Positions 6,437-30,763 of a stretch of DNA of 64,000 nt are shown in pieces (position 1 is the first letter of the stretch; the number at the start of each line of letters is the position of its first letter). The stretch is from the sequence record MT833282.1. One strand, 5' to 3'. A model generated the notes under the pieces. The model did not search any database, was not told the DNA's origin, and worked only from the letters and a program-made list of their open reading frames with translations. The position numbers and the translations under genes are program-made. Source of the stretch: Escherichia coli phage vB_EcoM_Shy.

Positions 6437-6638
6437 AAAGACACGGAAACTTATCAGGTCAGCGGTGTTCATTGGACGAAACGAGGTCATCCCATTTACA
6501 GCAAATGATGTGATAGCTTACAGGAAGAACTTAGTATTCACTGACTGTTTACGCGGCTTCATCTCTGAACCATTAGAAGATTTCAAAAGTCGCTGTGGCG
6601 AAGGCATCATCATTCAAGAGGCAATTATTCATGGCTGA
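6411..6638 (+). CDS. hypothetical protein
   Basis: 75-aa ORF in a compact co-directional gene string. Confidence 0.4.
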   Translation: MKVILARDKKTRKLIRSAVFIGRNEVIPFTANDVIAYRKNLVFTDCLRGFISEPLEDFKSRCGEGIIIQEAIIHG

Positions 6639-6831: not shown

Positions 6832-7617
6832 ATGGGTATTGTAAAAATTATCAATGGGGATATCTTCTCAGCATTTGATAAAGGTAAGTTTGATATCATT
6901 GGTCACGGTTGCAACTGTATGAACTTAATGGGTGCAGGTATCGCTGACAAGATTTCTAAACTTTACCCAAAAGCATATGAGACTGATACAGAAGTTTATC
7001 TGTATGCAGGAGGTATAGGTCACAAACCCTGTGAAAATTTACTAGGCAATTTCTCTGTAGCACGTTTAGAACAAGGCCGTATAGCTAACCTTTACACTCA
7101 GCTTAAGACTGGTAAAGATGCCCGATATAGTGCTTTAGAGTCATCTTTGAAACAGCTTAACAGATACTGTGAAGTCAATCAGTTGAAGAAAGTTGGGTTA
7201 CCTATGATTGGTGCAGGTATCGGTGGACTAGACCCTCAAGCCGTCACGGTTATCATTAATCAGGTGATGAAGAGTGTAGATGTGTATCTGTATGTCTACG
7301 AAGGAGAGATGTACCACAAGTTACGCTCAGGTTGGAAGAACTACTGTGAACCAGAATACTTTGCAGGTGTAGTAGTGTTCACTGATGATGCAGTTACCCT
7401 CTTCAGACGAAGAAAAGGTAAGATACATCAAAGTAACCCTCCGGTTGAAAAGATGTCTCTAAGTAACGCTCTAGTTACCCACCTGTCGAAGAGCAATCAC
7501 AGAATTGCAGTAACATTTGGCAGTGATGCAGATACATATATCTATGCAAGAACTGATGAGGATGTTGAGGAAATTTTCTCTTCACCGGAAGTAACCTTCT
7601 TAGACGCAAAGAACTAA
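6832..7617 (+). CDS. macro-domain (ADP-ribose-binding/processing) protein
   Basis: 261-aa ORF; N-terminal DIIGHGCNCMNLMGAGIA and downstream GLPMIGAGIGGLDP resemble the two glycine-rich macro-domain motifs. Confidence 0.6.
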   Translation: MGIVKIINGDIFSAFDKGKFDIIGHGCNCMNLMGAGIADKISKLYPKAYETDTEVYLYAGGIGHKPCENLLGNFSVARLEQGRIANLYTQLKTGKDARYSALESSLKQLNRYCEVNQLKKVGLPMIGAGIGGLDPQAVTVIINQVMKSVDVYLYVYEGEMYHKLRSGWKNYCEPEYFAGVVVFTDDAVTLFRRRKGKIHQSNPPVEKMSLSNALVTHLSKSNHRIAVTFGSDADTYIYARTDEDVEEIFSSPEVTFLDAKN

Positions 7618-25006: not shown

Positions 25007-25378
25007 ATGAAAAACAGAACAAACAAAGGCCAGTTTAAAAAAGGCCAGTCTGGAAACCCATCTGGAAGACCAAAAGGCTCTCGTAACAAAAGCTCACTTG
25101 TAAAAGCTCAACTGACCATTGATAATTCTGCTGAGTTTGCTGCAAAGTTGTTTGAAGCGATTGTTACAAGGGACGCTGCTAAGCTTGCAGAGTTCGGGTT
25201 AAACACAGATGACGTAACCATCAAGAGCATGATTGAGGTCGGTAAAACCATCTTTACTCACTCAGCAGGTGAGATGAAAGCACTTGCAGCAGACACTAAG
25301 AAGACTCCTGATAATGGTGGTCAGTCACAGACAGATAACAAACCAACGTTCTCTGCTGTAGCGACTCTCAAAAAATAA
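25007..25378 (+). CDS. hypothetical protein with N-terminal basic GQSGNPSGRPKG motif
   Basis: 123-aa ORF with AAGAGG SD; this motif is common in small phage proteins near packaging genes; function unknown. Confidence 0.5.
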   Translation: MKNRTNKGQFKKGQSGNPSGRPKGSRNKSSLVKAQLTIDNSAEFAAKLFEAIVTRDAAKLAEFGLNTDDVTIKSMIEVGKTIFTHSAGEMKALAADTKKTPDNGGQSQTDNKPTFSAVATLKK

Positions 25379-25459: not shown

Positions 25460-26875
25460 ATGAGCGAATTATTTAAACATGCGCACCTTCATGCAGGTCG
25501 AACTGAAAATGGTGCTGTAAACCATACTTCATCAATGTCTGCTTTGGTAGACTTCTACAAAGCCGCTGGCTCAAGCCGTAGCAATGTAGAAATCTTACCA
25601 GACCTGTTCTACAAAGCTTTGCGTGAGGATGTTGATGTTGCAGTTCGTATTTTACTGCATATGCGAGATGTACGAGAAGGTATGGGTGAGCGTAAAGCTT
25701 TCCGAACTGTTTTACTTCAAGCAATTGAAGATAAAGTTTTAGAACCTACACAGGTTCTTCGCATTATGGATAAGATTGCAGAACTCGGTCGTTTTGATGA
25801 CTTCAAAATCTTCGTAGGTACTCGTTTTGAGACAGATGCCTTCAAACATTTAGAAGCAGCATTACTAGACCCTGCAACAGCAGGTTTAGCGGCTAAGTGG
25901 TTACCACGAGTAAAACCACGCCACAAACAGTTTGTAAAACGTTTCTGTAAGTTTGCAAACTTAAGTGAGAAGGAGTATCGCACACTGTTATCTGCACTGT
26001 CTGATACGGTTGAGCAAAAAATCTCTGCTAATGAGTTTGGTAAGATTGACTACAGTAAGGTTCCTTCGCTAGCTGCTGCACGTTACCAAAAACTCTTTAA
26101 CCGTAAAGATGGGGAACGTTACAAAGCTTACATCGAGTCACTCTCAAAAGGTGAGGCTAAGATTAACGCTGGTGCTGTTTACCCATATGATGTGATTAAA
26201 TCTATCAAGTATGGTAATGCAGACGTTGCTAATGAGCAGTGGAAAGCACTACCAAACTGGATGGCAGAAGGTGAAAACATCTTGTGTATGACTGATGTTT
26301 CAAGTTCAATGTCTTGGGTGAATCTTGGTTCAATCACTGCCCTTGATATTGGTGTATCACTTGCCTTGTATGTAGCAGAACGTAATACTGGTTGCTTTAA
26401 AGATGAGTTAATGGTCTATTCAACAAGCCCTCATTTCATTGAACTGAGTGGTGATTTACGAAACCGTCATCGTCAGGTAATGCGTCATGTTGAATATGGT
26501 TCAACTAACTTACAAGCAGCTTTTGACCGTATTCTTGAGGTAGGCAAGAGAAACAACTTGACTCAGAAAGATATGCCAAGTAAGCTTATTATCTTCTCTG
26601 ATATGGAGTTTAATCAGGTTGATGGTGCAAATGGTCGTACAAACTTTGAAGCAATTCAGAGTAAGTACAAAAAAGCTGGATACGAAATGCCACAACTAGT
26701 ATTCTGGTACTTAGCAAACCGTAATGGTACTTGCGAAGTATCTGTTAAGGATAATGGTGTAGCAATGGTATCAGGGTTCTCTCCAGCCACTTTAAAAGCT
26801 CTGCTTGGTGGTGAGAAGTTTGACCCAATCAGCGTAATGCTCAAAGCAGTAATGATTGACCGTTACATCTGGTAA
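25460..26875 (+). CDS. vWA-domain protein, TROVE/Ro60-like
   Basis: 471-aa ORF; helical N-region then vWA domain with MIDAS-like DxSxS (ILCMTDVSSSM), GST, IIFSDMEF and C-terminal SGFSPATL, resembling my recollection of the Ro60 vWA region; sits immediately upstream of the tRNA array. Confidence 0.55.
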   Translation: MSELFKHAHLHAGRTENGAVNHTSSMSALVDFYKAAGSSRSNVEILPDLFYKALREDVDVAVRILLHMRDVREGMGERKAFRTVLLQAIEDKVLEPTQVLRIMDKIAELGRFDDFKIFVGTRFETDAFKHLEAALLDPATAGLAAKWLPRVKPRHKQFVKRFCKFANLSEKEYRTLLSALSDTVEQKISANEFGKIDYSKVPSLAAARYQKLFNRKDGERYKAYIESLSKGEAKINAGAVYPYDVIKSIKYGNADVANEQWKALPNWMAEGENILCMTDVSSSMSWVNLGSITALDIGVSLALYVAERNTGCFKDELMVYSTSPHFIELSGDLRNRHRQVMRHVEYGSTNLQAAFDRILEVGKRNNLTQKDMPSKLIIFSDMEFNQVDGANGRTNFEAIQSKYKKAGYEMPQLVFWYLANRNGTCEVSVKDNGVAMVSGFSPATLKALLGGEKFDPISVMLKAVMIDRYIW

Positions 26876-26894
26876 AAAGTTTCAAAAAGGGTAT

Positions 26895-26922
26895 TGACAA
26901 TGTGTTTGATACCCTTTAATAT
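26895..26922 (+). promoter_or_regulatory. promoter TTGACA-16-TAATAT embedded in 8-bp inverted repeat AAGGGTAT/ATACCCTT
   Basis: promoter hexamers upstream of the tRNA array; palindrome arms flank the -35 and spacer (operator-like). Confidence 0.5.
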
Positions 26923-26984: not shown

Positions 26985-27014
26985 TTGACAACCACTAAAA
27001 AATAATGTTAAAGT
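26985..27014 (+). promoter_or_regulatory. promoter TTGACA-18-TAAAGT with inverted repeat AACCACT/AGTGGTT
   Basis: second promoter about 30 nt upstream of the first tRNA. Confidence 0.45.
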
Positions 27015-27202: not shown

Positions 27203-27209
27203 GTTTTGA

Positions 27210-27282
27210 CAGAAGACCAATTACAGCAAGTTTAATCTTATTCATCTGACACGAAATCGGACAAAGAAGAGATTTGGTCTGG
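27210..27282 (+). ncRNA. structured spacer element A (CAGAAGACC...TwCAGCAA...GGTCTGG family)
   Basis: conserved 5' CAGAAGACCAATTACAGCAA and 3' TTGGTCTGG forming a 7-bp helix (AGACCAA/TTGGTCT); occupies the whole tRNA-Glu/tRNA-Met spacer. Confidence 0.45.
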
Positions 27283-27293
27283 TCATTAAGAAT

Positions 27294-27370
27294 TGCGGGT
27301 ATAGAGAAAGGGCGTCTCACATGTCTCATTAGCATGGTATCGGCAGGTTCGACTCCTGCACCCGCCTCCA
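27294..27370 (+). tRNA. tRNA-Met-like (anticodon CAU)
   Basis: anticodon stem-loop CATGT-CTCATTA-GCATG, T-arm GCAGG-TTCGACT-CCTGC, acceptor with mismatched first pair; Met versus Ile(CAU) not decidable by eye. Confidence 0.55.
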
Positions 27371-27376
27371 ATTTTG

Positions 27377-27436
27377 CAGAAGACCGTATTCAGCAACAAA
27401 CTACTTTTTGCGGATAAAAGAAAAAACACGGTCTGG
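27377..27436 (+). ncRNA. structured spacer element B (same family)
   Basis: CAGAAGACCGTATTCAGCAA ... ACGGTCTGG; helix AGACCGT/ACGGTCT shows compensatory changes relative to element A. Confidence 0.45.
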
Positions 27437-27447
27437 CAATGTATTAA

Positions 27448-27524
27448 GGTTAGGAAGCACATAAGGTATGTGCGGTCGCCTGTTAAGCGAATGGCACAGG
27501 GTTCGAATCCCTGACTAACCGCCA
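27448..27524 (+). tRNA. tRNA-Asn (anticodon GUU)
   Basis: D-arm GCAC..GTGC, anticodon loop CTGTTAA, T-arm CAGGG-TTCGAAT-CCCTG, CCA encoded. Confidence 0.7.
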
Positions 27525-27595
27525 AATTTAGGAGAGAAGCGATTGCTCACCGATTTGTAAGGTGCAAGTCCTTAGCCTGAATAGAATAATAAAAT

Positions 27596-27683
27596 GTGTC
27601 GTTATCCCGTAGATGGTAGCGGTGGGGACTGTAAATCCCTTGTCATTGAGACTCGGTAGGTTCGACTCCTACACGGCACACCA
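27596..27683 (+). tRNA. tRNA-Tyr (anticodon GUA), long variable arm
   Basis: acceptor GTGTCGT/ACGGCAC, anticodon loop CTGTAAA, 88 nt with extended variable arm, T-loop TTCGACT. Confidence 0.65.
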
Positions 27684-27689
27684 AATAAA

Positions 27690-27767
27690 GGTTATGTAGT
27701 TTAATCTGGTTAAAATACTCCCCTGTCACGGGAGATGATGAGGGTTCAAATCCCTTCGTAACCGCCA
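27690..27767 (+). tRNA. tRNA-Asp (anticodon GUC)
   Basis: acceptor GGTTATG/CGTAACC, anticodon stem-loop CTCCC-CTGTCAC-GGGAG, T-loop TTCAAAT. Confidence 0.7.
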
Positions 27768-27853
27768 AATTATAATAAGTATTTCAAAATGATGTTTGAG
27801 AGGGCTATTTAGCCCCTCCCTTAAAGAGTTCTTACGAGTATTCTTTAAAGGAG

Positions 27854-27926
27854 CAGAAGACCAAATTCAGCAAGAACGTATGAAATTTCAAGCCAATTTA
27901 ATTTTGAAAATTTAAACTTGGTCTGG
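27854..27926 (+). ncRNA. structured spacer element C (same family)
   Basis: CAGAAGACCAAATTCAGCAA ... CTTGGTCTGG, 7-bp helix AGACCAA/TTGGTCT. Confidence 0.45.
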
Positions 27927-27939
27927 CTCAACAAATTTA

Positions 27940-28071
27940 CAGAAGACCGTTTACAGCAAAACTTAAACAATCTATTTCTCCGGTAAAGAAAAGGCGAAGG
28001 TTCGATTCCTTCACTCGGCAGATGTCGAGTTGGTGTAATGGTAGCACTTAAGATGATAAACAATGGTCTGG
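27940..28071 (+). ncRNA. structured element D with circularly permuted tRNA-like domain (Y-RNA-like candidate)
   Basis: 5' CAGAAGACCGTTTACAGCAA and 3' CAATGGTCTGG helix enclose T-arm (GAAGG-TTCGATT-CCTTC, 27996-28012), closed acceptor-like hairpin (ACTCGGC-AGAT-GTCGAGT, 28013-28030) and D-arm (GTGT-AATGGTA-GCAC, 28033-28047); order is T-arm, acceptor, D-arm. Confidence 0.5.
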
Positions 28072-28072
28072 T

Positions 28073-28209
28073 AATTATCTTTGTAGATAAGTTATTAAGC
28101 TTCCCTGTGAGTATGCGACCACAAAGGTGAAAGGGTAGATTCTAGATTTAACCCGAAAAGACACATCGCTACAGACCTTAAGCAAGTCTGGGTAGCTTAT
28201 CTACAAAGA
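28073..28209 (+). ncRNA. long hairpin element E (18-bp perfect inverted repeat enclosing about 100 nt)
   Basis: ATTATCTTTGTAGATAAG (28073-28090) is the exact reverse complement of CTTATCTACAAAGATAAT (28192-28209); interior contains CAGACC..GTCTGG hairpin. Confidence 0.45.
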
Positions 28210-28218
28210 TAATTTAAT

Positions 28219-28452: not shown

Positions 28453-28476
28453 ATCTCAATAAAGTTGTTGACATTA

Positions 28477-28505
28477 AGATGTGACCACTTTATAGTAACT
28501 AAAAT
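28477..28505 (+). promoter_or_regulatory. sigma70-like promoter TTGACA-17-TATAGT inside the tRNA array
   Basis: consensus -35 and good -10; downstream 280 nt has no tRNA and no credible ORF. Confidence 0.5.
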
Positions 28506-28787
28506 ACTTCATAATATGTATAATTCAAACACCAATACATGAGCGTTAGACGTAACACAATGTGGGGAAATTTGTTGTACATATTCTGAATAGTTTTCGT
28601 TGCGTAGCGTCTATTTTGCAAATTTAAAATAAATGCAAACGACAATGTTTTCTGGCAGTAGCTTGATAGGCTAAACACCAGTGAGGTCTTCCAATCCCTC
28701 ATCAAAGAATTTGGCGTACTCGCCCACGGTATGATTAATAAGGTGGGCATCTTTAAGGGCTTTCTAAGAGAGCCTTTAAAGATTAAT

Positions 28788-30205: not shown

Positions 30206-30763
30206 ATGAGATATTTGAAGTATGCTTCATGGATTTTCTTAGCTTTGTTAGAGCCATTTGCAGCAATCTTAGCAGTTATCTTAGCACCTTTCGTAGTTCC
30301 ATTTTACAGTGAGAAGAAAGGACACTTACCTTTCGGATTTAGATGGATGGAGACATATGACAACCCTATTGATGGTGATGAAGGTCATATCGAACGATGG
30401 GCTAAGATTAGAAAGATTGGTAAGCTAGGTGTCTATATGCAGAGAGTCGGATGGCTCTGGAGAAACAAAGCTTATAACTTCTCCTACCATGTGTTAGGAA
30501 GAGATGTAAAAGATGTTACTAAGTGGAAAGGTAATATCAACGTAAGTTCTAACCCTAAAGATAATCAGACAGGTTATCTCCTAATGTGGAACAGTAATGC
30601 TTGGGGATTATTCGCTTTTATCCCATCAATTAAAGTCTTTGGTAAACAATTCTACTGGAGAATTTATGTTGGGTGGAAACTTAAAAGTGTTGTCCCAGAA
30701 GAAAGAGCATTCTCAAGGGAAAGAGTTATGTTGGCATTCTTTATTCATCCACTGAGAAAGTAA
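30206..30763 (+). CDS. membrane protein embedded in the tRNA array
   Basis: 185-aa ORF with AAAGAGG SD; N-terminal TM helix (WIFLALLEPFAAILAVILAPFVV), aromatic-rich. Confidence 0.5.
   Translation: MRYLKYASWIFLALLEPFAAILAVILAPFVVPFYSEKKGHLPFGFRWMETYDNPIDGDEGHIERWAKIRKIGKLGVYMQRVGWLWRNKAYNFSYHVLGRDVKDVTKWKGNINVSSNPKDNQTGYLLMWNSNAWGLFAFIPSIKVFGKQFYWRIYVGWKLKSVVPEERAFSRERVMLAFFIHPLRK

Follow-up and report, generated by a model that had tools for sequence, protein, structure and literature searches.

Four candidate Y RNA-like genes in the tRNA array of Escherichia coli phage vB_EcoM_Shy, downstream of a gene for a divergent Ro60-like protein

The transfer RNA (tRNA) array of Escherichia coli phage vB_EcoM_Shy raises the question whether four similar stretches that lie in it, here called elements A to D, are only spacers or RNA genes in their own right. 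The analysis covered a window of 64,000 nucleotides (nt) of sequence record MT833282.1, to which all coordinates refer and which carries 26 tRNA genes, all on the + strand. The phage is a Felixounavirus, and a 1.6-kb query from it matches, at 94–98% identity, about 300 records in addition to those of Escherichia phages ekra and SP22 and Salmonella phage SapYZU01. Elements A to D are unannotated in the two GenBank records examined. We consider it likely that they are genes for small structured noncoding RNAs of a Y RNA-like type, partners of a divergent Ro60-like protein that is encoded upstream.

In an initial annotation, four elements with a shared 5' motif and a common end had been marked, and a pattern scan confirmed that they occur at these positions and nowhere else in the window. 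When up to three mismatches were allowed, the 5' pattern CAGAAGACCNNNTNCAGCAA gave exactly four matches (27210, 27377, 27854 and 27940), each free of mismatches and located on the + strand; in shuffled sequence the mean was 0.69 matches and the maximum 2. Every element starts with CAGAAGACC-N3-T-N-CAGCAA and is closed by GGTCTGG, ending at 27282, 27436, 27926 and 28071, which places closure 60–132 nt from the start. The compensatory changes that had been claimed for the helix between the two ends can be read directly in the sequence: this inner helix is AGACCAA/TTGGTCT in A and C, AGACCGT/ACGGTCT in B, and AGACCGTT/AATGGTCT with one G-U pair in D, and it closes all minimum-free-energy folds of the four elements. 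The single-sequence folding z-scores are modest (−1.2 to −2.6), and the case for structure therefore rests on comparison and not on thermodynamics.

Outside the inner helix, and separated from it by an AGA/G internal loop, the elements have a second helix of 4 bp, in which the final G of GGTCTGG is the partner of the C in CAGA and three further flanking pairs follow (tgaC/Gtca in A, ttgC/Gcaa in B, gagC/Gctc in C and ttaC/Gtaa in D). The outer helix makes the elements slightly longer than assigned initially, at 27207–27285, 27374–27439, 27851–27929 and 27937–28074, all on the + strand. Element A, a short form, lies 4 nt past tRNA-Glu and 8 nt ahead of tRNA-Met, and is composed of the outer helix (27207–27210/27282–27285), the AGA/G loop, the inner helix (27214–27220/27274–27280), CAGCAA at 27224–27229 and an internal hairpin at 27245–27261 (TCTGA-CACGAAA-TCGGA). 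Element B, also short, is found 3 nt past tRNA-Met and 8 nt ahead of tRNA-Asn, with its inner helix at 27381–27387/27428–27434, CAGCAA at 27391–27396 and the hairpin CTTTT-TGCGGAT-AAAAG. The third short form, element C, has the inner helix at 27858–27864/27918–27924, CAGCAA at 27868–27873 and a TTTCAA...TTGAAA hairpin; its orthologs are 67–71 nt long, and their insertions and deletions disrupt any reading frame. Element D is a tRNA-like form, with the inner helix at 27944–27951/28062–28069, CAGCAA at 27954–27959 and a permuted tRNA-like module at 27975–28047.

Comparison with relatives indicates what is maintained in these elements. In an alignment of 28 sequences six of the seven helix pairs change on both sides (75 cells), and among 57 distinct matches to a covariance model, R1, 98.5% of the helix cells pair, with 150 cells double-changed, compared with 28–49% pairing in slid controls in which the partners were shifted by one to three columns; these figures come from sets selected by a pairing descriptor or fitted to the model, and are biased toward structure. 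Because the helix statistics were preselected for pairing, the unbiased evidence is provided by strand asymmetry and by a negative control described below. Among close relatives, one-sided changes in the helix (AGACCGA, AGGCCAA, AGACTGT, and AATGGTCT in D of the window) are all transitions that give G-U pairs on the + strand and would give A-C mismatches on the other, which fits an RNA read from the + strand. The outer helix can be counted as independent evidence since no search required it: in relatives among the Ounavirinae 98.5% of it is paired and three of its four positions show double changes, the flanking pairs being tga/tca, ttg/caa, gag/ctc and tta/taa with the wobble variants ggg/tcc and gag/ttc. 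As a family-wide feature the outer helix was rejected, as it holds in the Ounavirinae and is absent by eye from distant members. Judged by this comparison of sequences, the module is strand-specific and under selection at the RNA level, and the preference of the initial annotation for selection on RNA structure over plain duplication is borne out, since the module recurs beside proteins of 40–63% identity with almost every helix position exchanged with compensation.

It could still be argued that the elements are functionless, decaying remnants of duplicated tRNAs or spacers, or inverted repeats that matter at the DNA level, such as miniature mobile elements or recombination sites. Element D indeed derives from a tRNA, and B and D share flanks and internal sequence, to the extent that one allele of B carries the exact 5' 28 nt of D, which suggests duplication and gene conversion. 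Compensated changes in the closing helix, in the outer helix and in the acceptor-like stem of D are not what such remnants should show, nor is the restriction of one-sided changes to those that form G-U pairs on the + strand and A-C mismatches on the other. Moreover, all 65 R1 matches discussed below lie on one strand, and the module persists where the proteins are only about 40% identical. We therefore regard this explanation as hardly credible. A ribozyme, a group I intron, an integron attC site and a miniature inverted-repeat transposable element, all considered in view of the terminal inverted repeat, were likewise dropped, for lack of a matching motif and in view of the strand-specific G-U pattern. 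The B allele in question is a second one (loci L128, L130–L133 and L137, at about 6915–6980), which is identical to D over the first 28 nt at the 5' end and also has D's 3' flank (ggtaat), as if gene conversion or a deletion had taken place between paralogs. B and D further share an internal CTA(Y)TT...CGG...AAAG hairpin region.

The conservation and covariation of homologous spacers, which the initial annotation proposed to examine in related phages, are indeed present there, and they accompany a protein. Yersinia phage vB_YenM_P778, which encodes a homolog 53% identical to the Ro60-like protein, has three elements in its tRNA array with the same TWTWCAGCAA, and their helices differ yet are compensated (GGACTGT/ACAGTCC, GGATTC/GAATCC and GGACTC/GAGTCC). 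A set of 86 loci (946 kb) was composed of 80 viral contigs encoding homologs, 65 of them only 40–46% identical, together with the window and five other homolog loci. A plain descriptor (a 7-bp helix, 3 nt, CAGCAA, 20–260 nt and the 3' strand) gave 170 matches on the gene strand of these loci against 31 on the opposite strand; the latter number is about what chance would give by a back-of-envelope estimate (some 7% of CAGCAA sites), so the loose descriptor has a chance background. The distant helices are highly diverse (AGGTTCC/GGAACCT, TGGTTCC/GGAACCA, AGGATAG/CTATCCT and GGGACGT/ACGTCCC, among others). The shared module consists of a 7-bp helix, three bases, CAGCAA, a variable insert, the 3' strand and then a G, and conserved across the family are the G-C pair at the second position of the helix, the purine at the third, CAGCAA and the unpaired G after the 3' strand, which is near-invariant and replaced by A in the relative from the Yersinia phage.

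Model R1 was built from 28 diverse short elements, including A and B but not C and D. With filters off, it matched exactly A, B, C and D in the whole window, the next match having an E-value of 0.036. A (39.4 bits, E 4.6e-7) and B (47.5 bits, E 4.9e-9) are training sequences and match by construction; C (35.1 bits, E 5.2e-6) and D (31.5 bits, E 3.8e-5) are outside the training set. In 70 homolog-encoding loci (716 kb) R1 found 65 matches with E≤0.01. Every one of them is on the gene strand, and 51 are no more than 500 nt from the gene (41 downstream, 10 upstream). The negative control consisted of 864 kb of viral contigs that have no such gene and that each contain a Felix-type 5' 15-mer by chance; it gave 0 matches. 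In the reverse direction, the gene is present in 16 of 24 loci with complete elements, while four more of these loci are short pieces of Felix-like contigs, and in 0 of 96 loci with the 5' pattern only.

A role limited to that of tRNA-precursor spacers, which would guide or time nuclease processing and then be degraded, had been left open initially and has to be weighed here. The location of A to D, all 3–8 nt from tRNA genes or from one another, would suit such a role, and in several other lineages gene and elements are also found beside tRNA arrays. However, no tRNA gene whatever is present in 27 of the 41 distant loci that were examined, from which it follows that the element accompanies the protein and not tRNA arrays. 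The element is also missing from most tRNA junctions of the window's own array, and neither an invariant single-stranded CAGCAA nor a conserved tRNA mimic would be expected of a spacer. A spacer-only role is thus argued against above all by the distant elements, most of which lack a nearby tRNA gene, and we consider it very improbable. The initial description, although correct as to structure, was incomplete in this respect, as it also missed the permuted tRNA of D and the Ro60-like gene upstream.

The partner protein proposed here has 471 amino acids and is encoded at 25460–26875 on the + strand, in a gene that ends 332 nt ahead of element A. It carries the Pfam domains DUF2828 and DUF7788, falls in PHROG 850 ('RNA-binding protein') and is the ortholog of gp130 of phage JohannRWettstein (Bas63), whose gene bas63_0130 occupies the same position ahead of the same tRNA array. 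The protein family is large, with more than 3,300 database proteins matched among 8,000 candidates scored. Searches of Protein Data Bank chain sequences with the protein (phmmer and profile) found no Ro60, nor anything else. An AlphaFold model based on 36 homologs had a predicted local distance difference test score of 84.9, and the top 11 Foldseek matches to this model were all Ro60, Rsr or TROVE structures, with full-length alignments that include 1yvp, 2i91, 2nvo and 9l5y. Since the sequence searches found nothing, the likeness to Ro60 is known from fold comparison only. According to the model, the protein would have a HEAT-repeat ring and a C-terminal vWA domain with a MIDAS (an adhesion site that depends on metal ions), the residues of which (D279, S281, S283, T349 and D381; DxSxS...T...D) are invariant in the 36 homologs. 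According to the PhageMaP preprint, Bas63 gp130 resembles Ro60 in structure and counteracts the Ppl defence system; the authors guessed that some annotated tRNAs might be Y RNAs, but none was identified (PMC11482910). The protein considered here is the same, and the candidates lie in unannotated spacers and not among the annotated tRNAs. Immediately upstream of the Ro60-like gene is a gene for a DUF5681 protein of 123 amino acids (25007–25378, + strand), a position that is kept in loci L121, L122 and L125 at 47–63% protein identity; its product may be a third component of the system.

Element D contains a complete, circularly permuted, tRNA-Thr(GGU)-like cloverleaf at 27975–28047. From 5' to 3' it comprises an anticodon- or V-like stem-loop of 5 bp and 7 nt (27975–27991, TTTCT-CCGGTAA-AGAAA), a canonical T-arm (27996–28012, GAAGG-TTCGATT-CCTTC), a 7-bp acceptor-like stem (AS) with the 3' strand first and the closing loop A-GAT (28013–28030, ACTCGGC-A-GAT-GTCGAGT) and a canonical D-arm (28033–28047, GTGT-AATGGTA-GCAC), i.e. 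the order V, T, AS, D. Once the two halves are put back into the usual order, ARAGORN recognises a complete 75-nt tRNA-Thr(ggt); in the native order it makes no call, and the Rfam tRNA model gives only a partial match at 27963–28013, with 22 bits and thus under the gathering score of 29. In nine orthologs of D hardly any change is seen in the T- and D-arms, and the AS stem shows compensated changes (ACTCGGC/GTCGAGT, ACACG/CGTGT and ACCCTTC/GAAGGGT, with loops of 4–8 nt), which marks a maintained fold and not a decaying pseudogene.

Genes for circularly permuted tRNAs, such as those of the red alga Cyanidioschyzon merolae, mature via a circular intermediate to a normal tRNA. Element D resembles them in having the 3' part of the tRNA before the 5' part, with the acceptor ends joined by a short loop. 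In D, however, the permutation point is the junction of D-arm and anticodon-arm (26/27), and it is to this point that the family stem is attached. The bridging of the break by the conserved family stem, AS loops of 6–8 nt in orthologs and the replacement of U33 by C together point to a mimic of tRNA and not to a tRNA that functions in decoding.

The order of the parts of D is also that of the tRNA-like domain of the bacterial Y RNA YrlA, in which V, T, AS and D follow each other, the T and D arms are conserved and the AS stem is variable (Chen et al. 2014, PMC4201824). Bacteria have one tRNA-like Y RNA plus at least one short hairpin Y RNA, and in the window, too, a single RNA with conserved T and D arms and a covarying AS, element D, stands alongside short hairpin forms. 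Similarities to YrlA and YrlB (PMC4201824) and to Yrl1 and Yrl2 of phage phiLo (PMC12135203) include a location beside, and on the same strand as, the gene of a ring-shaped Ro60-fold protein with a vWA/MIDAS domain, 5' and 3' ends that pair, a short conserved motif on the 5' strand, and occurrence in phages. The likeness to YrlA is confined to D in the window and to mid-size elements in other lineages; A, B and C lack a tRNA-like domain and correspond at best to YrlB-like short forms. There are also differences, as D keeps the whole cloverleaf including an anticodon-like arm, and four copies lie inside a tRNA array. With the metazoan Y RNAs bound by Ro60 the elements have in common paired termini, which in those RNAs form the protein-binding stem, and a variable distal part, which there binds other factors; the elements of the window lack the GGUCCGA bulged helix, RNA polymerase III features and the La-binding U tail, and D has a tRNA-like domain.

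Across the family the insert of the module varies in size and content. Short forms of about 50–75 nt carry a hairpin, which has a 5-bp stem and a 7-nt loop in 33 of 71 cases, compared with 7.7 in shuffled sequences. A canonical T-arm occurs in 17 of 32 mid-size forms (81–170 nt, from many lineages) and in 0 of 71 short forms, a division that mirrors the bacterial pairs of YrlA and YrlB. The YrlA order of T-arm, closed acceptor hairpin and D-arm is found in some members, for example at 6579 and 7439 of locus L199. General mimicry of anticodon loops by the short forms is not a family rule, as only four loops fit YU-NNN-RA. A few short elements of distant phages are exact anticodon-arm look-alikes, such as ATTGA-CTTTTAA-TCAAT at 8295 of L125. 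In orthologs of element A (L122, L126, L132 and L133–L140, with proteins about 63–99% identical to that of the window) the stem TCTGA/TCGGA is kept and the loop varies (CACGAAA, AGGTAAA, AAGTTAA, CCTGTAA), or the whole hairpin is swapped for TTTTC-GCGCATA-GAAAA. At 7329–7427 of L199, the family stem and CAGCAA surround a body that resembles tRNA-Lys(UUU) and is not permuted (55.7 bits over positions 5–66 of the Rfam tRNA model), with the family stem in place of the acceptor stem. A long class of about 240–260 nt, often directly after a short element, was seen in L161 (4793–5032), L178 (6521–6762), L149 (6471–6721), L192 (4652–4897) and L203 (4653–4899); those of L161 and L149 share internal sequence blocks by eye, none matches Rfam, and they may be a larger structured RNA in their own right.

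Several points weigh against a Y RNA-like identity of A to D, in addition to the bias of the pairing figures. That the elements give stable RNAs and that these contact the protein is inferred from co-location only. In 21 of 68 distant loci a strict descriptor detected no element up to 1.5 kb from the gene, and R1 had no match in 24 of 70 homolog loci. Pfam assigns only DUF2828 and DUF7788 to the protein and not TROVE, unlike the partner of YrlA. The motifs GNCGAAN0-1G of YrlA (with CGAA in a bulge) and GGUCCGA are absent from the elements, which have instead CAGCAA after the helix, the position-2 G-C pair and the unpaired 3' G; the nearest string in the 5' region (g)CAGAAGACC...CAGCAA is gCAGAAG, which differs from GNCGAAG, and none is present in distant members. 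Rfam 15, searched with A to D up to E=10, gave as its one match of note the partial tRNA match in D, although the presence of the YrlA model in that library was not confirmed by a positive control, and at gathering scores no family other than tRNA was found in 12 distant loci. A 21-bit match of element B to an unrelated Dictyostelium family is at chance level. No description of these RNAs, nor transcript data for them, was found in searches of the literature on DUF2828, on Bas63 with Ro60 and on RNA sequencing of Felix O1. Even so, the best reading by analogy is that of a Y RNA/Ro60 system which would be of the YrlA/YrlB type in architecture and genomic context, with a different binding motif.

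The strongest rival to this interpretation is that the elements are cis-acting sites on a precursor or messenger RNA, to which a protein binds for regulation, for instance operators for autoregulation of the Ro60-like protein or for tRNA maturation. In most distant loci the element shares the gene's strand and is no more than 500 nt away from it, so that it could belong to an untranslated region, although adjacency cannot discriminate here, as bacterial Y RNAs are also co-transcribed with rsr. Further support comes from the KVP40-like Vibrio phage phi-pp2, where the gene's 5' leader holds a mini-element whose 3' strand includes the start codon, an arrangement reminiscent of a translational operator. 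The copies in the window, on the other hand, are situated behind separate promoter-like sites, 330–1200 nt past the gene, and are packed closely between the tRNAs; the presence of several copies in a genome, their distal modules differing, would also be difficult to reconcile with a regulatory site, and it is hard to see what an operator would do with a tRNA-like module whose T and D arms are strongly conserved. On balance a cis-regulatory role seems unlikely. The phi-pp2 mini-element (JN849462.1; L124, 4966–5005) is a 40-nt module, GACATT-tta-CAGCAA...AATGTC, with a Shine-Dalgarno-like sequence in the loop and the ATG in the 3' strand, and possibly serves autoregulation as an operator; 3.1 kb upstream of it, after tRNA-Ser, there is a complete element of 247 nt that has the same helix.

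If A to D are indeed Y RNA-like genes, their RNAs would be made together with the tRNAs from promoters at about 26.9–27.0 kb. Two sigma-70-like sites, found by a consensus scan only, are located at 26894–26922 and 26985–27014 (+ strand), ahead of tRNA-Pro, and are the putative start of a transcript carrying the tRNAs and A to D, with the reservation that, in total, promoter-like sites are no more numerous in the region than in shuffled sequences. As A and B lie 3–4 nt past one tRNA and 8 nt ahead of the next, release could be accomplished by the enzymes that trim the flanking tRNAs, with RNase P acting at the downstream tRNA and 3'-end processing at the upstream one. Ro60 contacts mainly the 5' strand of the Y RNA stem, and by analogy the stem and the CAGCAA strand would be the site for the phage protein. 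The distal module, tRNA-like in D, may recruit or decoy other factors, just as Y RNAs tether Ro60 to PNPase. The particle would then serve in RNA surveillance or in anti-defence during infection, the latter role being based on the gp130/Ppl report alone.

A more far-reaching idea is that of a widespread phage Ro60-like ribonucleoprotein with interchangeable RNA heads on one stem, which would counter defence by acting as a decoy for, or by recruiting, host enzymes that act on tRNA. The observed heads comprise 5-bp/7-nt hairpins with anticodon-arm geometry, whole tRNA bodies and permuted tRNAs, and the idea is prompted by the variation of loops between near-identical phages and by the few heads that copy anticodon arms of tRNA-Lys or tRNA-Arg exactly. 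We put it forward tentatively, as a doubtful extension. In a sharper variant, RNase P might open the 7-bp acceptor hairpin of D, to give a two-piece molecule with a tRNA-type acceptor end as in M. smegmatis YrlA.

With A to D, the published guess that gp130 has Y RNA partners among the tRNAs of Bas63 is turned into four concrete, testable candidates. A simple signature (helix, three bases, CAGCAA, 3' strand, G) finds such RNAs beside homologs in dozens of unrelated phage contigs. The partnership of Ro60 and Y RNA would thereby be extended to a protein family that sequence methods label with DUFs, and to a different RNA recognition motif. What Ro60-type particles and tRNA mimics do could be asked in a tractable E. 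coli phage, for which a knockout phenotype of the protein has been published. The comparison also flags annotation errors, namely the lack of annotation of A to D and the open reading frames annotated over C and D in Bas63. These are small frames on the opposite strand (bas63_0137 and bas63_0138; 27845–28063 of the window, − strand), listed as hypothetical proteins in GenBank. They are probably spurious, as the 'GIEPS' in the translation comes from the antisense T-arm and the orthologous regions have frame-breaking insertions and deletions.

A possible fifth copy at 30250–30458 (AGAGCCATT-tg-CAGCAA...GATGGCTCT-GG, 209 nt, kept in relatives) was rejected, since it lies inside an open reading frame of 185 amino acids (30206–30763) and has no R1 match. 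Other parts of the region are structured as well. Directly 3' of D, a segment of 147 nt (28072–28218, + strand) has a closing stem of about 24 bp and a minimum free energy of −45.6 kcal/mol (z −5.5; none of 200 shuffled sequences was as stable). At its 5' end it overlaps the 3' strand of the outer helix of D; it has no match in Rfam, and may represent a further noncoding RNA or a site for RNase III. The unannotated gap between tRNA-Asp and element C (27768–27853, + strand) contains three hairpins (z −3.9), and the unannotated 71-nt gap between tRNA-Asn and tRNA-Tyr (27525–27595, + strand) is structured too (z −2.5). Further downstream, a weak match to the transfer-messenger RNA model of Rfam, below threshold, was found at 28599–28787 on the + strand (17 bits, E 5e-4), in a gap of 335 nt that begins with a strong promoter-like site at 28468–28496 (11 of 12 consensus positions).

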